A DNA stretch of 64,000 nucleotides from Lama glama. Its lineage: Eukaryota. The stretch lies in the NCBI GenBank assembly GCA_028534125.1, contig CM052816.1, forward strand, positions 60,390,001-60,454,000. Reading direction: 5' to 3'. Under the pieces are notes generated by a model. The model made no database searches. It was not told the DNA's origin and saw nothing but the letters and a program-made list of their open reading frames with translations. Both the position numbers and the translations under genes were made by a program. This document shows positions 6,601-58,659 of the stretch, in pieces; positions within the stretch are counted from its first letter, which is position 1; the number at the start of each line of letters is the position of its first letter.

Positions 6601-7480
6601 TCATACAACAAATCCATTTATACAACAGATTTTTTGTGCCTACTGGTGCCAGACACTGTTAGGTATTGGAGATTCCAAGCTGAAGAGACAGTCTAGTAGT
6701 ATAATAAATGAAGTAAAAATAAAATAAATTAAGGAGCACATGTGAAAGTGCACTGAGGTCCCCCAATACCTTCTAGTGGGAAATATCTTACTATGCTAAT
6801 CTGAATAAGCACTGATGAAACTCAGAATGTGCTCTGTGTGTCCTAATCACTGCACCTCCCAATGCCTTCATACCCAATCGTACAGTGCCTGACACACAGC
6901 AGGTGCTCAAGTTATTTATGGAATAACAAATTACTTGAAGTATTTTAAAGTAAAATGACTGCTCTTCTGTGTGTGTTGCACACAGAAAAGCCTGGACTCT
7001 TGTTCTTCTACTTCCAAAGAGAGAAAGTTTACTGCATTTTGTTATTGGTAGAATGGTTGGAGGGACAGAAAGCAAAGGGGAAGATTTCAATAAAGAAAAA
7101 GAAAGATAACATTTTCCATTATGGCAAGCACTGTACCTAGGAGGAGAGAGGGGGTAAAGGCAAAGAACTAAGAACTGGATGCAAGTACCTCTGAGTAGAA
7201 AGGAGATACTGCTAAAAAGTGCAAGCCCAAGAGCAAACAGCCGAACACTTCAGTTTTATGACTTTCTAAAAGCAAACACTGGCGGCGTAAGAGCTCAGAG
7301 ATGAAGATTACCTAAGAAAAAGATACTTCTGGGAAAAGAAATAAAAAGGACTTTTTCATTTACTGACATTATGAAGTCTTTTTTATTGCATTTATTTAAC
7401 ACACCTACATGATGTTTAATACACACCAGGAACTGTTCAAGGTGATTTTACAAATATTATTTCATTTCATATTTCACACT

Positions 7481-9520
7481 GATGAAAGTCGTCAAAGAAA
7501 ACACCAGTGAAAGGAAAGATACACCATTCTCATGGCTTGGAAGAATTAACACCATTAAAATGACCATATTACCCAAGGCAATCTATAGCTTCAGTAAAAT
7601 CCATAATAAATTACCAAGGTCACTTTTCACAAAACTAGAACAAAGGATTCTAAAATTTTTATAGAAACACTAAAGATGCTGAACAGCCAAAACAATCTTG
7701 AGAACGAAGAATAAAGCTGGAGGTATCACACGCCCTGATTTCAAACTATACTACAAAGCTACAGTAATCAAAACAGTATGGTACTGGCATTAAAAACACA
7801 CACAGATCAATGGAACTGAAAGAATAGAAAGCCCAGAAATTAACCCACTTATATGGTCAATTAATCTACAACAAAGGAGACAAGAATATACAATGGAGAA
7901 AAGATAATCTCTTCAATAAACAATGTTGGGAAAACTTGACAGCTATATGCAAAAGAAACTGGACTACTTTCTCAAACCACACACAAAAATGAACTCAAAA
8001 TGGATTAAAGACATAAATATAAGACCTGAAACCATAAAATTTCTAGAATAAAACATAGGCAATATGCTTTTTAACAATATTTTTTGAACATGCCTCCTCA
8101 GGCCAGGGAAACAAAAGCAAACATAACCAAAAAATGGGACAGCTCAAACCAAAAAGCTTTTGCACAGCAAAGAAAACCATCAACAAAATGAAAAGGCTGC
8201 CTACTGAATGGGAGAAGATACTTACAAATGACATATACAATACAGGTTAATATCCAGAAACATACAAAGAACTCATACAACATCAAAAAAATAAAACAAA
8301 ACAAACAAAAGCCAAACAACCATATTAAAAACTGGGTAGAGGACCCGAATCAATATTTTCCAAAGACATACAGATGGCTAACAAGCACAGTAAAAATATG
8401 CTCAACATCACTAATCATTGGGGAATGCAAACCAAACAACAATGAGGTATCACCTCATATCTGTCAAAATGGCTATTATCAAAAAGACAACAAACAACAA
8501 GTTTTGGTGAGGATGTGGAGAGAGAGAAACGTTGTACATTATTGGTGGGAATGTAAACTAGTGCAGCTGCTATGGAAAACAGTGTGAAGATTCCTCAGAA
8601 AATTAAAAAAATAACTCTTATATGATCCAGCAAATTTACTCCAGGGTATTTATCAAAGGAAAATGAAAAAACTAATTTGGAAAAACACATGCATCCCTAT
8701 GTTCACTGTAGCATTATTTACAATAATCAAAACCTGAAAGTAACCTAAGTGCCCATTGATAAAGTGCCCAAGGATAAAGAAATTGTGGTATATATACACA
8801 ATGGAATACCACTCAGCAATAAAAAAGAATGAAATCTTGCCATTTGCAATAAAATGGATGGATCTAGAGTGTATTATGGTAAGCAAAATAAATCAAACAA
8901 GAGAAAGATAAATATTGTATGAGTTCACTTCTATGTGAAATCTAAAAAACAGATGAATAAACATAACAAAACAGAAACAGTCATAGAGAACAAACAAGTG
9001 GTTGTTGGGGTAGGAGAGAGAGAAATAGGTCAGGGAGATTAAGGGGTCCAAACTTCTAGTTACAAAATAAATGAGTCTGGGGTATGAAATGTACAGTGTG
9101 GGAAATACAGTCAATAATAATGTCACATCTTTATAAGGTGACAGATGGTAACCAGACATCATGGTCATCATTTTGAAATGTTTGAAATCACTATGTTGTA
9201 CACCAGAAACTAATATACTCTGGGAGGTCAATTATACTTCAAAAACAAACTCACAGAAAAAAGGATTAGGTATTTAGTTACCAGACCAGGGGTAGGGTGG
9301 GGTGGGAGGAAGGGAGAACTGGATAGAAGTAGCCAAAAGGTATAAACTTCTAGCTATAAAATAATAAATATTCAACAAAATTATTGTGGCAATTATTTCA
9401 CGATGTATATAATGCAAATCATTGTGCTGTACACCTTAAATTTACATAGTGCTGTATATTGATTATATCTTAAGGAAACTATAAAAGAAAAAAAGTAAAA
9501 CATCTCTCATAAAGAAAAAA
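7481..9520 (+). mobile_element. 5'-truncated L1 (ORF2 3' part plus 3' UTR) inserted into a MIR
   Basis: Translates to PFSWLGRINTIKMTILPKAIYSF and CSTSLII...[13 protein letters not shown] (L1 ORF2p), followed by an L1 3' UTR and A-rich tail. MIR halves flank it at ~7400-7470 and ~9660-9800. Confidence 0.92.
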
Positions 9521-17549: not shown

Positions 17550-17945
17550 CGGAAATGTCATTCTAGTGAAGGCAGCCAGAAAGAAAGGAAAATACCATAT
17601 GACATCCCTTATATGTGGAATCTAAAAAAAAAAGAAAAACAAATGAACTTATTTACAAAACAGAAACAGACACACAGACATGGAAAACAAACTTATGGTT
17701 ACTGGGGGGAAGCAGGTGGGAAGGGATAAATTGGGGGTTGGGGATTTGCAGATACTACTTTATGTAAAATAGATAAAGAACAAGTTTAAACCATATAGCA
17801 CAGGGAATTATATTCATTATCTTGTAGTAGCCTATAATGAAAAAGAATATATGTATGTATGTTATGACTGAAATGTTATGCTATACACCAGAAATTGATG
17901 CAACATTGTAAAGTGACTATACTTCAATAAAAAAAGGACCAAAAA
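17550..17945 (+). mobile_element. L1 3' UTR fragment (camelid/artiodactyl type)
   Basis: aaataccatatgacatcccttatatgtggaatct...acaaaacagaaacagac...gactatacttcaataaaaaaa. Confidence 0.9.
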
Positions 17946-22282: not shown

Positions 22283-23522
22283 CCACATTTCTTGTATTGT
22301 TTTTACTTCTTTTTATTATTAAATCTTGATGAGTTGAGTTAGAGAAAAAGCTGCCAGGAGATTTCTAAGCCAGATGCCTGTTTAACTTCTGAGGACAAAG
22401 AGGGATTTCCTCCCTCCACTTTTTATTGCTTTTTTTTTTTAAATGAAGTGTAGTGGCTGTGCAATATTATATAAGGTACAGGTGTACAATATAGTGATTC
22501 ACAGCTTTTAAAGGTTATACTCCATTTATAGTTATTATAAAATATTGGTTCTGTTCCCCGTGTTGTACAATATATCCTTGTAGCTTATTTTATACCTGAG
22601 TTCATACCTCTTACTTCCTATCCCTTATTGCCCTTCCTGCTTCCCTCTCCCCACTGATAATCACTAATTTGTCCTCTACATCTGTGAGTTTGCTTCTTTT
22701 TTTTTGTTATATTCACTAGTTTGTTGTATTTTTTTAGATTCCAAATGTAAGTGGTATCATACAGTATTTGTCTTTCTCTGCTTGACTTGTTTTACTTAGC
22801 TTATTAACCTCCAAGTCCATCCATGTTGCTGAAAATAGGACATAATTAAACTTCAAAGCTTTTGCACAGTAAAGAAAACCATCAACAAAACAAAAAGACA
22901 ACCTACTGAATGGGAGAAAATATTTGCAAATGAGATGACTGATAAGGGATTAATATCCAACATATGTAAACAGCTCATACAACTCAACATCAAAAATACA
23001 AACAACCCAATTAAAAAATGAACATAAGAACTGAACAGGCATTTTTCCAAAGAGGAAATGCAGGTGGCTAACAAGCACATGAAAAGATGCTTCACATCGC
23101 TAATCATCAAGGAAATGCAAATTAAAGCCATAAAGAGATATCACTTCACACCTGTCAGGAAGAATACAAATCACAAATGTTGGCAAGGATGTGGAGAAAG
23201 GGAACCCTCATACACTGCTGGCGGGAGTGTAAATTGGTGCAGCCACTATGGAAAACAGCATGGAGGCTCTTCAAAAACTAAAAACAGAGCTACCGTATGA
23301 TCCAGCAATTCCACTCTTGGGTATAAATTAAAAAAAAAAAAACACTAATTGGAAAAGATACATGCACCCCAGTGTTAACAGCAGCACTGTTTACAATTGC
23401 CAAGATACAGAAGCAACCCAAGTATCCATCAACAGGTGAACAGATAAAGAAGATGTGATATATATATATATATGCAATGGAATACTACTCAGCCATTAAA
23501 AACAAAACAAACCACATTTCTT
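22283..23522 (-). mobile_element. 5'-inverted L1 insertion with 11-bp TSD and probable 3' transduction
   Basis: Minus-strand 3' UTR with poly(T) at ~22430-22836 abuts a plus-strand ORF2 end at ~22837-23500. Direct repeat ccacatttctt at 22283-22293 and 23512-23522. Confidence 0.85.
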
Positions 23523-24888
23523 AATAGCCAGAAGACCTGGCAGCAGGGAAAAAAAAATGAAAAAGCACTTAGGTCACAATTATGACTGATTTATAATTTC
23601 TGCAACAAGCCCAGGGACAGGGTGGGCCCTCACTCCAAAAGAACCACATCTTCTCTGGTAATACTGCACATTACCACCCACAGACCTTTAAAAGTAAAGC
23701 AACAGGGAAGTCTCATCCTCGCACTGGATCTGTCGCATCAGTGTTTTGTTCTAACTCCTACATGTAGGAGGCTTAGCATACTCTAGCGGTGGATTAAGAC
23801 AAAAGAAAGATGGGATACTGGTGATATTCACTTTGAGACAATTTAAGATAGCATCAAACACATGAAGGCAGTATTTAATGAGGACAACATTTTAACAAGA
23901 ACAAGAGAATAGTGTTACATTAGAACACTGTTAAGTGAAGTTACATATTACTAGTAGTGACCATTTGTAGGCAACCTTTATGAGTCTTAAATTGGTAATT
24001 AATATGTACAAAATATTTACTGTGATTCAGTTTTAATTTTTAGTTGTAAGACTTCTTTCATCTTTTCAAAGTACAACGTCACGTAAGGTTGTTTTACTTC
24101 AGTTTGTTCTAGATTAAGAACACCTATGTATGAATTAAGGTGGGTTCCAGCTTCCCTTATCACATGAGGTCCAGAAATGATAACCTTGGCTTGAAGGAAC
24201 ATTGCTTTGAACATAATACCTGAAATATTTTTGTAGACACATTATTGTTTTTTGGTCAGCACAGTAATATTATCACTTGCTTAGTATCTTCATGTAAGTA
24301 GTGGGGGCTCAACATAACCTTCAGTTGATTCATTAAAATTAACACATATGGTTATTTTTACCCAAGGTTGCAGCACTGGGGCACTTCCTTCCTCATTTAA
24401 GACCCATGAGCATTATTTTAATTATTCTAGTGCTTCTATCTTCCTAGTTTATCACTTCAAGTCCTCTAATCACAGTGGCTTTTTGAATATGTTGACACAC
24501 TTGCAGCAACTAGACTGTCTCTGGCTTCAAGAACAAAAACTCTGTTTATTGCCCATGGACTCTAATAAAGCCACCCCAACCCCTGGTCACAAATGGTTGT
24601 TTGTGTTTATTTATTTTACAAAAACAGAGAGGTTCTCTGTCCTAATTTGAACAATTCTATCTTCCAGAGTCTAGGATTGGGCAGCCTTGAGCAAGTTAAA
24701 GGCTTAAATATTTGGCAAATTATAAGAGAAACTTTTCTTTATTATTAATCTTATGATACTCTTATTTGTTCTTTTTTTACTGTGGCTTTAAGTTCTGATG
24801 ATAGCCTACAAATATTTAAAAACTTTAAAAGTAACACTATAGAATTTACACACATGCAAAATTACATTTAAATATATTCTAATTATAC

Positions 24889-25245
24889 CTTTTTTATTGA
24901 AGTATAACTGATTTATAATATTGTGTTAATTTCAGGTGTAAAGTGATTCAGATTACATATACATATTCTTTTTCATATTTATTTCCATTATAAGTTATTT
25001 CAAGATATTGAATACAGTTCCTTGTGCTATATATACAGTAGGTTCTTGTTGTTTATCTGTTTTCTATATAGTATATATAGTAGTGTGTATCTGTTAATCC
25101 CAAACTCCTGCTTTATCCCTCCCCTCCCTTTCCCTTTGATAACCGTAAGTTTGTTTTCTACATCTGTGAGTCTGTTTCTGTTTCACAAATACATTCATTT
25201 GTATTATTTTTTAGATTCCACATATAAGTGATATCATGTAATATT
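24889..25245 (-). mobile_element. L1 3' UTR fragment
   Basis: ttttttattgaagtataactgattt...ttagattccacatataagtgatatcatg. Confidence 0.88.
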
Positions 25246-26989
25246 TCATAACAAATATCTTTTTATATTTATGTTCATCAACTTTGTCTATTTTGATGAT
25301 GACTAAAACTTAACTGCAGGGAACACAATTTGAGTTGGTCAAAATACAGCTCATTTGGAAACATGGGAAATGTGATGTTTCCTTTTATTTGGTATAGTTC
25401 ATATGATTTGTCATACTTAATATAATATGATTGATTCTTGGCTTTTGGCAGGCTCAGTTTATTCAACAGCTTGTAAGTACCATTTCCTCTGTCACTTAAA
25501 CTTCCATACTGGCCAGCAGGAGCTCCTTCAGTTTGGTTCATCTGTCCTTCATAGTTCCAAACACTATCAAAAGCATCCCTGCTCATCAGGGGAAAAAAAA
25601 TCCCCCCCAAAAGTCAAACAAAACAAAACAAAACAAAAAACTGTTCTGAAACCAACAAAATGTTCCCTATCCCAACCATGACATCTGGTTATGTCCCAGA
25701 AAGAATCCTGGTGTAGTGGAAAAGGTGGAAGCTAGGAAGCAGCTGTTCATCGTCTTATTTAGAACAAGGCAGAAAAATTACACTTGGTTTTGATTTAATA
25801 AAGATTGCAAGTTCATACAGAAGATTCAAAGTGAACTCTAACTTTGCTAAGTCCTTTTTTAGTCTTGATGTGAATAATTTAGTTTCTCCCTCTTTTTAAA
25901 ATTACCATCTTTAATATTTATACATATGCAAAAAATTCCCATACCAATCCATTTATTTGAATTATAATATCATTGAAAGTACTAAGAATCTCATTTTTAA
26001 AAACATAATTATATTTTTTCAAATATATCATTCAATAATGATCACAATATATAATTTCATCATTTCCTTTTTGGCTATAGAACAACCTAATGGCTTTTTC
26101 CCCCCCCTCTAATTAACCAAGTAAACATGTGTAGAACCTACATGGGAATGTTCCTTTACTCTCATAAGCAAAATACAGACCTCATGAGTATCTGCAGATG
26201 TATTCATTTTTAAGATAACACTATTATTTTTAACCACAGGCAGTTTTAGTGTTTAGCTCCAATATTCTAAAAGTCTGTAGAAAATGCAAAGGTATTTATC
26301 ACCTTAATATTAACAATTAAAGTTTTCAAAAAAAGCAATTAAGAATGTTAGTGAACACAATTAAGTTATATCACATTAATACATATTTAACGTTAAGAAT
26401 GGTCAAAAACACACAATATTAGACAACTTTACTCCAAATTTTCAGTGTGAAAATTTCTTAAGTCAACATTGTTTAAGTTTCAGGAAAATGAAATCATAAG
26501 AGACTGATTGAAATCATAAAACACACAGTTTTTATGCACTCCAGTAACAGTTCTTTGTTCCCATTGTCTACACACCCCTCAACCAATCCAGTTTATGGTT
26601 TGTTATATAAACAGAATTACAAATTATGTATAAGGTTACAGCCACTAAAAGCTTTAATCACTTTAGCTTTATTAAAATCTAATTTTTAGACAGATTAAAA
26701 TATGCCATTCCTGTATTCCCATTTTTGCATCTTGGGGTAATTATCACAGGAACAAAGTAAAATCACATTTAAAGAATTAAAATTCACAGAAGAAATAACC
26801 TCAAGGTTATCAGTAAATATTTTCCAAAGAGATCCTCAAACTGAGAAATAAAATTTTTTGGTTCTATTTATATTACTATATTATATATTACATTCAAAAC
26901 ATTTAAGATAAAAATCCTCAACTTTAAGTTTTAAAATTTAAGTTAACCAGATCAGTATGAAACAAAAAATAAATGTCTAAAAACAATCA

Positions 26990-28280
26990 TTAAAAGTATT
27001 AAAAGAAGTCCAGTGAGGGAGAACTTACCAGACATTACAACTCACTAGAAGAAAGCCATTGAATTAAAAACAAAATGGTGATGGCACAGAAACAGACAGG
27101 GATCAGAACAGAGAGGTGAGAAATAGATACAGACGTATACGGCATCTTTATATTTGACAAGGGTAACATTTCAATACCATGGAAAATAAAGTTTCTTGTA
27201 GTAACTAGGACTTAAGTAACTTTGTATCATCTACAACACTTAAAATGGGAGTAAGACTTTAATGTTTTTTTTAAATTCGGAAGAAAATTTACATGACCGT
27301 GGGACAGACAATACCATCTAGCAAAACAGGTAACTCAGAAGCAATTAAAAAAAAAAAAAAGACAGACATACTTGATTAAATAGTAAACAACAATTTCCTT
27401 GGTAAAAGATATCATACACAGAGACAAGAACTGTAAAGCTGTATTTGTACACATATAACAAAGAATAAACATTTCAAAAACACAACAAATAGCTCCCAGA
27501 AATTGTGAAAGAAAAAACACTACAAAGTAGAAAAAATGGGCAGTGGAAATGAATAGGAAATGAAGAAAAAAGAAATTCAAATGGACAATGAACATATGTA
27601 AATATATTCAACATCAGTGGCAGTGAAGAAAATGTAAATTAATGATCAGAGATAATAAGATTGGCAAGAATTAAAAGGAACAATGGTATCTAATGCTGGT
27701 GAGAATGTAGGAAGTGGGTACTCATGTGCAAACGTGATATACTCTTCCTTTGGGAAAAATAATGTATTAAAATCAAAAATACACATACCGTTTGACCAAG
27801 CAATTCCACTTCTGGGAATCTATCCTATAGGGAGAAAAAAAGGACCAGTACGTAAGGGCACAGGTACAAAGATTGCAGTATTGTTTGTTGTGGGGCAGAG
27901 GAGGAGCAGGGGATTGGAAGTAATGTGAATGTCCATTCATGGGGAAATGGTTAAATGAAATGTGGTCTATCTATAAAATAGAATATTAGGTATGATTAAA
28001 AAGAGTGGGATAAATCTGTAGACACTGACTTAGAAGGTTGATCAAGTAAGCAAAGCAAATTCAAGAGCTATAATCCCATTATAACAACCACACCAAAACA
28101 ATGAATGTGAATGCACTCATATGTACATGGAATAAGGAATAGAAGAACACAGACCAAACCAACAATGGCCACCTAGGGTTGTGAGTGGAAACAGGGGCTG
28201 GAAGGGATGGGGATAATTTACTTCTTTTTAGTGCACCTTTGTGCTATTTCACTAGTTACTATGAGTTATATTCATTTTAG
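26990..28280 (+). mobile_element. Old L1 (L1ME/L1MC-like) ORF2 3' end, host of the exonized MAST4 cassette
   Basis: Degenerate L1 motifs (aaaacaaaatggtgatggcacagaaacagaca, aaaaatgggca, aatgctggtgagaatgtagga, tgtccattcatggggaaatggttaaatgaaatgtgg). Plus-strand translation IPFDQAIPLLGIYP corresponds to the ORF2p [14 protein letters not shown] motif. Confidence 0.8.
27789..27824 (-). CDS. MAST4: 36-nt alternative cassette exon of MAST4 ([L]IDSQKWNCLVK[R]), L1-derived
   Basis: Minus strand reads ccttacgtactggtcctttttttctccctatag|GATAGATTCCCAGAAGTGGAATTGCTTGGTCAAACG|gtatgtgt. It is phase 2/2 and stop-free after the 32-nt exon, and it matches the recalled MAST4 isoform peptide LIDSQKWNCLVKR. Confidence 0.85.
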
Positions 28281-28389
28281 ACCTTTCACAAGTATTCTTA
28301 AGGAAAATACATTAGCTTTTATTAGTAGTAGTAAAGCAGTAGTACTTCCAGACATTCATCTTTAATAAAATAGTAGCAATTAAACAAAT

Positions 28390-29165
28390 ATTCCCTCCTC
28401 TGCTTACGCTAGTCACCAAAGAGTTTTTTTTCATTGTTTGCCCAATATCCATTCCATCTCTCTGCCATATGTGTATCAGCCATGTGGTTTGGGTGTGATT
28501 GACTCCACCCCATTCTCAGGGACTTCTGAATGGTCTATGCTAATTCTGTCCACCAAAAATGCAATTTGAAGCCACCTATACAATTTTAAATTTTCTAGTA
28601 TTCACATTAAAAAAATTAAAAGCAGGTGAAAGCAATTTTAAGACGTATTTATATTCTGACCCAAAATATCCCAAAATACTGTCATTTCCCATGCATTAAC
28701 AGGTATTTCACATTTTTTCATATCTCAATTGGGACTAGCTACATTTTAAGAGCTCAGTAGCCACATGTGGCCAGTGGTTACCATACTGGACAGCACCAGT
28801 CTGAGCTAATGAGAGTAATGCCATAACTATTACCATATTCAACAGTGGACACAACACCTAAGAAGGCCCAATAGAAGAGAAACCCCATAATGGTAGGATT
28901 ATGATGAGAAGAACCAAGAAAAAAGTAACCATAACCACCCCCCCCAAAAAATAAAAACTGCTGGCAGCCAACTATGAGCTAGGAAGGGAGCCTGCACTGG
29001 GATGAAGGAAAAACTGGATCCTGGTGTCAACACTGAACCTCTGGATCACACCCTGCAAGAAGCCTGGCCTTCCTAGTTACATTAGCTGGTCAATTTCCTT
29101 TATTTTTTTCAGCCACTTTGAGTGAGGTTTCCTATTACTTGCAATGAAAAGTATCCCAATTGATA
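28390..29165 (+). mobile_element. Old MaLR LTR (MLT1J/K-like) interrupted by a MER33-like element
   Basis: 3' end aagcctggccttcctagttacattagc...ttcagccactttgagtgaggtttcctattacttgcaatgaaaagtatcccaa is typical of late MLT1 LTRs. Confidence 0.6.
28541..28797. mobile_element. hAT-Charlie non-autonomous DNA transposon (MER33-like)
   Basis: ctgtcca...gccac...aattttaaattttctagta...cacattaaaaaa and terminal gtagccacatgtggccagtggttaccatactggacagcac. The termini ctgtcca/tggacag are inverted. Confidence 0.75.
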
Positions 29166-30227: not shown

Positions 30228-30401
30228 GATCTATAGGTTCAATGCAATTTCGATTAAAAAATCTCCACAGGTAGGAATAGACTTACCATATGACCCAGGA
30301 ATCCCACTCCTGGGCTTGTACCCAGAAGGAAATCTACTTCAGGATGACACCTGCACCCCAATGTTCATAGCAGCACTATTTACAATAGCCAAAACATGGA
30401 A
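30228..30401 (+). mobile_element. Young L1 ORF2 fragment running into the assembly gap
   Basis: Translates to IYRFNAISIK then IDLPYDPGIPLLGLYP...DTCTPMFIAALFTIAKTW (L1 ORF2p). Confidence 0.9.
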
Positions 30402-30901
30402 NNNNNNNNNNNNNNNNNNNNNNNNNNNNNNNNNNNNNNNNNNNNNNNNNNNNNNNNNNNNNNNNNNNNNNNNNNNNNNNNNNNNNNNNNNNNNNNNNNN
30501 NNNNNNNNNNNNNNNNNNNNNNNNNNNNNNNNNNNNNNNNNNNNNNNNNNNNNNNNNNNNNNNNNNNNNNNNNNNNNNNNNNNNNNNNNNNNNNNNNNNN
30601 NNNNNNNNNNNNNNNNNNNNNNNNNNNNNNNNNNNNNNNNNNNNNNNNNNNNNNNNNNNNNNNNNNNNNNNNNNNNNNNNNNNNNNNNNNNNNNNNNNNN
30701 NNNNNNNNNNNNNNNNNNNNNNNNNNNNNNNNNNNNNNNNNNNNNNNNNNNNNNNNNNNNNNNNNNNNNNNNNNNNNNNNNNNNNNNNNNNNNNNNNNNN
30801 NNNNNNNNNNNNNNNNNNNNNNNNNNNNNNNNNNNNNNNNNNNNNNNNNNNNNNNNNNNNNNNNNNNNNNNNNNNNNNNNNNNNNNNNNNNNNNNNNNNN
30901 N
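30402..30901. other. Assembly gap (500 N)
   Basis: Run of N. Confidence 1.
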
Positions 30902-38095: not shown

Positions 38096-38127
38096 AAACT
38101 TCCTCTTCTGGGAAGACTCAGCTCCTT
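38096..38127 (-). CDS. MAST4: 32-nt internal coding exon of MAST4 (KELSLPRRGS + 2 nt; phase 0 in, phase 2 out)
   Basis: Minus strand reads catgttttctttcttccttttgcag|AAGGAGCTGAGTCTTCCCAGAAGAGGAAGTTT|gtaagtag, with a strong polypyrimidine acceptor and consensus donor. KELSLPRRGSF is the conserved MAST2/MAST4 peptide that precedes CRTSNRKSLI. Confidence 0.93.
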
Positions 38128-54020: not shown

Positions 54021-54389
54021 AAAACTACATGACAAAAAAGACAAATGATCTTATTTACAAAATAGAAACAGATTCACAGACATAGAAAACAAACTTGTGG
54101 TTACCATGGGGGGAAGAGGGTGGGAAGGGATAGATTGCAAATCTCGAATTCCCAGATACTAATTATATATATATATATATAAAATAGATAAACAACAAGT
54201 TCATACTGTATAACGCAGGGAGGTATATTCAGTATCTTGTGGTAACTCATGGTGAAGGGAAATATTAAAATGAATGTATGTTTGTTCATGTATGACTGAA
54301 GCATTATGCTGTACACCACAAATTGACACAACACTGTAAACTGACTATACTTCAATAAAAATATATATATACAAAAAAAATTACATGAC
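54021..54389 (+). mobile_element. Camelid-type L1 3' end with 13-bp TSD
   Basis: aaaagacaaatgatcttatttacaaaatagaaacaga...ctgactatacttcaataaaa. TSD aaaactacatgac (54021-54033) / aaaattacatgac (54377-54389). Confidence 0.9.
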
Positions 54390-56817: not shown

Positions 56818-57090
56818 TGGCTATTATATGATATTGAATATAGTTCCCTGTGCTATACAGTAGGTCTTTGTTGTTTACCTATTTTATATATAGTAGTTTG
56901 TATCTGTTAATACCAAACTCCTAATTTATGTCTCCCCTACTCCCCTGCTTCCCCTTTGGTAACCACAAATTTGTTTGCAAGTCTATTTCTGTCTTGAAAA
57001 TAAGTTCATTTGTATCATTTTTTAGATTCCACATATAAGTGATATCATCTGATATTTGTCTTTGTCTGACTTACTTCACATTACAATCTC
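56818..57090 (-). mobile_element. L1 3' UTR fragment
   Basis: gatattgaatatagttccctgtgctatacagtagg...tttagattccacatataagtgatatcat. Confidence 0.88.
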
Positions 57091-57611
57091 TGTAATGCTC
57101 TATTTTTTAAATCTTGGTACTGTTACCGGGTATAGTCAGTGTGTGAAAGGTCATTGATATCTGCACTTCTTGGACATGTTACTCTTACAGAAAAAAAAAT
57201 CAGTCTCCAAGATCTTTGGGATAGTATCAAACTTACAATATCTGTATATTTTTGTGTTACAAGAAGATGTTTTTTAATAAATTAGCAAGAGATTCTTCAA
57301 AAGGCAGTAGACTATAGTCACCTTCAAGCTTGTGCACTAAATCCCACTGTGTGCTAGACCACAAAACAGCCAAATCCTTCAGTACAAACTGTCGGAACTG
57401 AATTCCAAAGGCATGTTTTAGTCCCACAATTTTGAATGCTTTAATACTGTGTTTATATCATACCTTACAGAGAGCATCATGGAAAATAAGTAAGTGGAAT
57501 CCACTTTCGGTAAAATTACCTGTATGTGTCACAGATGTTAGGCTAAAAAAATTGGAGTGCCCTTTGCCCATTTTTCAACTAATTTGTTAGGTCCAAAATT
57601 CTGTTAAAAAC

Positions 57612-58659
57612 AGAGAAATAAATTTTTTTCTTCAGTATTGCTTTGGCAATTCTGGGTCTTTTGTGATTCCATATAAATTTTAGGATTATTTGTACTAGTT
57701 CTGTGAAAATGTCCTGGATAATCTGACAGGGATTGCATTAAATCTGTAGATTGCTTTGGGTAATACGGCCATTTTTAACAATATTAATTCTTCCAATCCA
57801 AGAGCATGGGATATCTTTCCATTTCTTTAAGTCATCTTTAATTTCCTTAATTGATGTTTTATAGTTCTCTGTATGTAAGTCTTTCACCTCGTTGGGCAGG
57901 TTTATTCCTATTTTATTTTTTGATATGGTTTTAAAAGCATTTTTTAAACTTTCTTTTCTGATATTTCATTGTTAGTGTAAAGAAATGCAATGGATTTCTG
58001 TATATTAATCTTGTATCCTGCTACCTTGCTGAATTCGTTTATCAGCTCTAGTAGGTTATGTGTGGAGTCTTTAGGGTTTTCTATATACAGTATCATGTCA
58101 TTCCAGCAATTTACTCCTGGGTATATATCTGGAGGGAACTCTAATTCAAAAGACACATGCACCCCAATGTTCACAGCAGCACTATTTATAAAAGCCAAGA
58201 CATGGAAACAATGTAAATGTCCATTGACAGGTGAATGGATAAAGTTGTGGTATATTTATATAATGGAATACTATTTAGCCATAAAGAAGGATAAATGCCA
58301 TTTGCAGCAGCATGGACAGACCTGGAGATTGTCTGACTAAGTGAAGAAAGCCAGAAAGAGAAATAAAAATACCACATGACATCACTCATATGTGAAAGCT
58401 AAAAGAAAGATAAATTAACTTATTTACAAAACAGAAACAGACTCACAGACATAGAAAACAAACTTATGATTACCAGGGAGATAAGGGGGTGGGAATAGAT
58501 AAATTAGGGGTTCAGGATTTGCAAATACTACTATATATAAAATAGATAAACAACAAGGTCCTACTGTATAGCACAGGGAATACTATTCAAAACTTTGTAA
58601 TGGCCTATAATGAAAAAGAATATGAAAAGGAATATATATATTAAAAAAGAGAAATAAAT
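57612..58659 (+). mobile_element. 5'-inverted L1 insertion with TSD
   Basis: Antisense ORF2 at ~57625-58100 ([36 protein letters not shown] on the minus strand) is joined to a sense ORF2 end and 3' UTR at ~58100-58645. TSD agagaaataaat at 57612-57623 and 58648-58659. Confidence 0.9.

Follow-up and report, generated by a model that had tools for sequence, protein, structure and literature searches.

The analysis of a 64,000-nt window of the Lama glama genome (contig CM052816.1, positions 60,390,001 to 60,454,000) indicated that an old piece of L1 ORF2, located antisense within an intron of MAST4, corresponds to an annotated optional exon of this gene. The exon is near-invariant in placental mammals, and its peptide has probably been under selection since before the placental radiation. 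All positions below are those of the window, and the features are collected in Table 1.

The MAST4 cassette exon

The neighbouring stretches of the genome contain the subsequent exons, the kinase exons and a last exon of 1.3 kaa. The 99% identity of this last exon to alpaca MAST4 identified the gene as camelid MAST4, encoded on the minus strand. Residues 206-216 of alpaca isoform X1 (P0147) map to the 32-nt exon, residues 217-228 of 2566, right after RRGS, to the cassette located 10.3 kb further on, and residues 229-259 to the exon that follows at a distance of about 129 kb, each with 100% identity. Together with the 2-2 phase of the cassette, this mapping confirmed the in-frame insertion after the 32-nt exon that had been proposed in the initial annotation.

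Table 1. Features of the MAST4 cassette exon and its surroundings (window positions)
Feature	Position	Strand	Remarks
Remnant of a decayed L1 (3' part of ORF2) containing stops and frameshifts, in antisense orientation to MAST4	26990..28030	+	ORF2 peptide matches and copy alignments; ends approximate
MAST4 cassette exon	27789..27824 (27824-27789)	-	36 nt, symmetric phase 2-2, adds 12 residues IDSQKWNCLVKR; alpaca isoform mapping and protein records
Acceptor region: AG, pyrimidine tract, candidate branch point	27825..27856	-	Branch-point use inferred
Donor GTATGT	27783..27788	-	GT common at the equivalent L1 position (31/46 aligned copies)
32-nt MAST4 exon upstream of the cassette (KELSLPRRGS), phase 2 end	38096..38127	-	Isoform mapping
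75-nt alternative in-frame MAST4 exon further upstream, 25 residues	63445..63519	-	In many placental isoforms

The plus strand reads PFDQAIPLLGIYP between positions 27788 and 27826, so that the 36-nt exon is flanked on the minus strand by tag on its 5' side and gtatgt on its 3' side. The acceptor AG is the only one within 76 nt upstream, the tract before it has pyrimidines at 14 of 14 positions, and a branch-point-like CTTAC places its A at -29 (about 27853). Pairing of the donor with the 9-nt U1 motif in its generally known form was estimated at -5.0 kcal/mol, with -4.9 for the donor of the 32-nt exon. All the signals originally described for this minus-strand exon are, thus, present in the sequence. 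The window contains 10 minus-strand segments, the cassette included, that are open, preserve the frame and pass the same crude splice filter; the splice signals by themselves are not beyond chance, and it is the protein records that set the cassette apart.

The peptide is present in a partial human MAST4 record, KAI2537699.1 (P0218), which agrees with its earlier attribution to human isoforms. For alpaca, dromedary, elephant, horse, pangolin and other species, the annotation lists isoforms both with and without the cassette, and this evidence of inclusion consists of database isoforms, mostly predicted models that may be carried over from one species to another. Neural microexons of the SRRM4 type are at most 27 nt long and carry UGC just upstream of the acceptor. 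The cassette was not assigned to this type, as it has 36 nt and no TGC in the 30 nt before its acceptor.

Origin from L1 ORF2

The plus strand of the window is identical to residues 1168-1181 of human L1 ORF2p at 13 of 14 positions, and a related ORF piece from another L1 copy (L043) matched residues 1146-1242 of the same protein with an E value of 5.6e-38 in a PDB search. Using peptides from 17 L1 copies like L043 as the ORF2 query set, five collinear matches were obtained (27051-27185, 27314-27385, 27509-27709, 27740-27898 and 27906-27986), with frame shifts and stops; the best E value over the exon was 7e-8. The codons of the exon lie exactly opposite ORF2 codons. Moreover, the flanks alone, with the exon excluded, retrieved two sets of further copies from the genome (10 and 21), the majority of which aligned to L1, and the flanks of the exon are among the most diverged copies examined. 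The exon is located inside an L1 copy, with both splice sites within the ORF2 homology, and both the ORF2 origin and the antisense orientation put forward earlier (ORF2 on the plus strand, the MAST4 exon on the minus strand) held. The element had been placed at about 26990-28280, of which the part up to about 28030 stood, but the right end was not confirmed: support stops at 28030-28150, no L1 match at E<=1e-3 was found in 27990-28600, and one local L1 alignment extends to 28147.

A DNA profile of 17 younger L1 copies, searched with the default composition correction, matched only 26993-27226 and missed the exon, which we attribute to the age and A-richness of this L1. A profile match covering the exon without composition correction (E 2e-42) was discounted, as composition-driven minus-strand matches also arose. 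No Pfam family was assigned to the translation of the plus strand, and three L1 ORF pieces likewise had no meaningful Pfam match. The default profile scan would fit a chance resemblance to L1 on the reverse strand of an old vertebrate MAST4 exon. That explanation is contradicted and has almost no probability left, because the 13/14 match to human ORF2p stands in register with four further ORF2 segments over 0.9 kb, the flanks alone retrieve L1 copies, and the peptide is missing from 147 of the 147 listed non-placental proteins. A domesticated L1 protein of the L1TD1 or Lyosin type, which would keep an L1 protein domain in the element's own frame, was rejected as well, since the exon encodes 12 residues and runs antisense to ORF2.

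Further L1 fragments were observed in the window at 7428-9255, 17573-17940, 22432-23502, 24879-25246, 54057-54361 and 56820-58620. Those at about 22.8 kb and 58.1 kb consist of back-to-back pieces in opposite orientation, like 5'-inverted insertions. The L1 piece at about 30287 is interrupted by a 500-N assembly gap (30402-30901).

Splice signals in other L1 copies

The splice signals were tallied in 46 of 56 L1 copies that could be aligned (10 did not cover the region, and a few alignments were shaky); nine of the 46 had been chosen by their likeness to the exon. GT was present at the donor place in 31 copies, AG at the acceptor place in eight and both in five. An open 36-nt antisense frame, encoding similar peptides, occurred in 18 of the 46, and the pyrimidine tract corresponds to an A-rich stretch of ORF2 on the opposite strand. 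The donor, the pyrimidine tract and the open antisense frame are, therefore, common in L1s, and the acceptor AG is the scarce part.

The four other copies of the motif in the window (8619, 23294, 30287 and 58094) had been described as having no comparable acceptor and donor pair. AG is missing at the homologous place in all four, so none has such a pair, but this does not extend to the donors, which are as good or better in two of them (23294 and 30287). On the minus strand, the piece at 30287-30322 carries a perfect GTAAGT donor, and it is apparently internally deleted. Elsewhere in the genome, one old L1 (G000:C12:53340700-53343759, about 1500-1560 of this copy, L008) has both AG and GT, together with a 14/14 pyrimidine tract and an antisense frame that stays open over the 36 nt.

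Distribution of the peptide among species

The protein query spanning the exon junction gave 49 matches among 329 candidates at E<=1e-5. All 49 come from named placental species, and they include tenrec, sloth, tamandua, shrews, bats and rodents; the peptide is also found in elephant and manatee. The protein set comprised 582 fetched records, some of which are not MAST4, with clusters sampled by the members listed, at most 15 each. The 11 residues fully coded by the exon are present in 91 of these proteins, all of them placental MAST4: 78 are exact, 12 carry I>V (murids and cricetids) and one carries Q>P (Nannospalax). The remaining 491 proteins match at no more than five of the 11 residues.

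Marsupial proteins came from a separate search, as the search of 50% representatives yielded none; the non-placental sample consisted of marsupials, sauropsids and amphibians. The peptide was found in none of the 58 listed marsupial proteins (seven species), though 39 of them join both flanking exons, and likewise in none of the 76 sauropsid and 13 amphibian proteins among those listed. Annotated MAST4 isoforms with the peptide occur in 63 placental species from all four superorders, with the same junction at the protein level. The comparison of placental orders with marsupials, proposed earlier as a check, thus agreed with a placental exon, carried in four superorders and in 0 of 58 listed marsupial proteins. 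The initial annotation had described the exon as shared by camelids and primates; it is present in both, but the sharing is wider and older, as it also includes Afrotheria, Xenarthra and rodents. Near-invariance of the peptide in all four main placental branches and its absence from the marsupial proteins suggest that it was likely useful before placental diversification.

Conservation of the exon

The parsimony analysis was performed on one protein per species from 63 species. Only species with the exon annotated were eligible, which biases the set toward conservation, and species in which the exon was lost or altered may be unannotated, inflating it. The 11 exon-coded sites required two changes over the 63 species (0.18 per site). 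The corresponding values per site were 0 for the exon upstream, 0.35 for the one that follows, 0.31 for the DUF1908 part, 0.06 for the kinase, 0.94 for the linker and PDZ, and 5.6 for the last exon. Without the long-branch rows of Perognathus and Pipistrellus, the values were 0.27 for DUF1908, 0.05 for the kinase and 5.1 for the last exon. On the same tree, the median for the last exon is 59-65 changes in 11 sites, and 49 of its 1081 windows of 11 residues have at most two changes. By these counts, the cassette appears to be held nearly as tightly as the neighbouring conserved domain, and two changes in 11 sites are taken to show the constraint that had been claimed for it, acting either on the peptide or on the nucleotides.

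The records behind these counts are mostly predicted 'isoform X' models, and several placental clusters are represented solely by a member without the exon. Both facts are what would be expected if a rare cryptic exon from one or a few species had been transferred to the annotation of other genomes, with good matches alone being retained. This origin of the pattern is very unlikely, as each record is the translation of its own genome, and near-identity between tenrec, elephant and sloth on one side and mouse, shrew and camel on the other is unexpected of neutral L1 DNA, given the median number of changes in the last exon. In addition, variants at 10 of 11 residues were detectable, yet no protein matched at six to nine of the 11, and, within one of the cluster sets examined, the exon is found in all seven clusters with at least eight members.

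The preservation of the exon was also compared at the nucleotide level with the majority sequence of younger L1 copies as the yardstick. The exon bin agrees with it at 30 of 36 positions and ranks at the top of 27 bins, the other 26 flank bins reaching a mean of 20.9 of 36 (sd 2.8, max 26). The control L1s were 24 copies picked by their flanks, of which eight were dropped (no exon bin or too little flank) and 16 kept; the copies chosen by exon similarity (L002-L010) were excluded from this test. The excess of the exon bin over its flanks was 9.1 here and 1.9 in the 16 controls (sd 2.9, max 6.5; rank p ~0.06), so the segment is mildly conserved in L1s generally. The impression that the exon is better preserved than its flanking L1 was upheld, with an excess above that of 16 out of 16 control copies in a small test.

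All 11 third codon positions of the exon equal the L1 yardstick, compared with 149 of 183 (0.81) in the control copies, which hints at constraint on the nucleotides and is not significant. If a splicing-regulatory or other RNA or DNA element were the target of selection, the 12 residues would be tolerated passengers in a disordered region. Such an explanation draws on these third positions and on the frequent overlap of splicing signals with short alternative exons, but the exon preserves the frame and lacks a stop in 91 of 91 records, the commoner change (I>V) is conservative, and the lack of silent changes in one lineage, at about 10 partly degenerate sites, is not significant (estimated p ~0.1). 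We regard it as unlikely and selection on the peptide as the preferred reading.

Comparison with known exonised elements

Most L1-derived coding exons are young and rarely included, with no selection evident. A coding exon that is derived from antisense L1, placental-wide and near-invariant is rare.

The exonisation of transposable elements (TEs) is established, and so is the origin of alternative exons from old antisense L1s (Attig et al. 2018, PMC6108849). The exons from old LINEs described there resemble the MAST4 exon in that an antisense mammal-wide L1 in a long intron gives an alternative exon, but they are treated in bulk by inclusion level, unlike the single case of MAST4. The text and smaller supplements of that paper do not name MAST4, and its large tables mmc5 and mmc6 may list the exon. 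Sela et al. 2007 (PMC2394776) report six TE exons orthologous between human and mouse, four from MIR and two from DNA elements, with no L1 among the six. The MIR exons of DMWD and MYT1L in that report, like the MAST4 exon, were exonised before the split of placental orders and kept in both species.

Lyosin (MYL4), L1TD1 and BCNT-P97 (Kitao et al. 2025, PMC12129022) are likewise conserved coding exons that originated from LINEs, and Lyosin, like the cassette form of MAST4, is an alternative isoform. These three use the element's own frame (ORF1p or endonuclease) over hundreds of residues, whereas the MAST4 exon is read from the antisense strand of ORF2 and encodes a novel 12-residue peptide without L1 protein function. 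In the accessible text of the same paper, conserved L1 co-options are described as few, and those derived from ORF2 are left open. The class of L1 coding exons is large, as 684 human coding exons in GENCODE overlap LINE/L1 (Martinez-Gomez et al., PMC6924539). LINE/L1 is not among the classes named in the accessible text of that study as being under purifying selection, and the MAST4 exon looks like an exception within its class.

Within the full-text literature outside subscription journals, no paper on the L1 origin of the MAST4 exon was found. Mentions of MAST4 in the accessible parts of PMC8373072 and PMC9132324 concern promoters, and the gene was not found in the readable supplements of several papers, PMC2203978 included. 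Public annotation already includes the exon, which may well be present in bulk lists of TE exons. In the features examined, it behaves as an exapted TE cassette exon, and it is a small and datable example of protein sequence newly arisen from the non-coding strand of a retrotransposon. Since the ancestral state is readable in L1 copies and the exon is missing from non-placental orthologues, the birth of the motif is directly testable. MAST4 has been linked to epilepsy, bone differentiation and cilia (PMC12024977), and, with the exon masked as a repeat, variants there could be overlooked.

Proposed origin and role of the peptide

The donor, the pyrimidine tract and the open antisense frame would have been supplied by the L1, and the limiting step would have been the acceptor AG, either a new mutation or one inherited from an old subfamily. 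A symmetric and optional exon would have come at no cost to the main isoform. The Leu-giving base (Pro to Gln in ORF2, Trp to Leu on the antisense strand) is present in none of the 17 flank-picked copies, but Leu is found in 63 of 63 species, so the change from Trp to Leu was presumably fixed before the placental radiation.

The 12-residue insert lies 60 residues before the GRRWS serine and 345 before the kinase domain, and it adds Trp222 and Cys224, the latter five residues from Cys229. The GRRWS serine of MAST4 is the equivalent of MAST1 S90, a PAK site that binds 14-3-3, and the N terminus of MAST1 has been described as disordered (PMC13598245). Following the basophilic RRGS site, the peptide could act as a short linear motif in a disordered N-terminal regulatory arm. 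Its position suggests, weakly, that it might tune the binding or localisation of the long isoforms and not catalysis. As to the chemistry, a contact with a membrane or a partner through the added Trp and the new C224/C229 pair is the favoured possibility, though a doubtful one. An autophagy (LIR) motif of the W-x-x-L type was rejected, as the adjacent residues are off the usual pattern.

A wider and tentative proposal is that the antisense of the ORF2 C-terminal region is a latent, frame-preserving 36-nt exon cassette throughout the genome, which would already contain the donor, the pyrimidine tract and the open frame and be short of an AG. The stem placental might have recruited it in MAST4 as a new functional motif, e.g., a site for lipidation or docking by which the long isoforms are retargeted. 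If so, independent recruitments of the same cassette would be expected in other genes, and L008, with its AG, is one other copy of this kind.

Other inserts at the same junction

Rhinoceros (P0013) and beaver (P0140) proteins contain an extra lineage-specific 16 or 20 residues ahead of the placental insert. Another alternative exon at this junction (LTPRS..., 27 residues; P0066, P0092, P0237 and P0393) was observed in frog, birds and placentals, which makes it ancient, and it can come after the L1-derived exon. The intron after the 32-nt exon may be a repeated source of new exons. A different insert of nine residues, unrelated to the placental one, is carried at the 38096 junction by five of the 15 listed Monodelphis isoforms (P0433 cluster).
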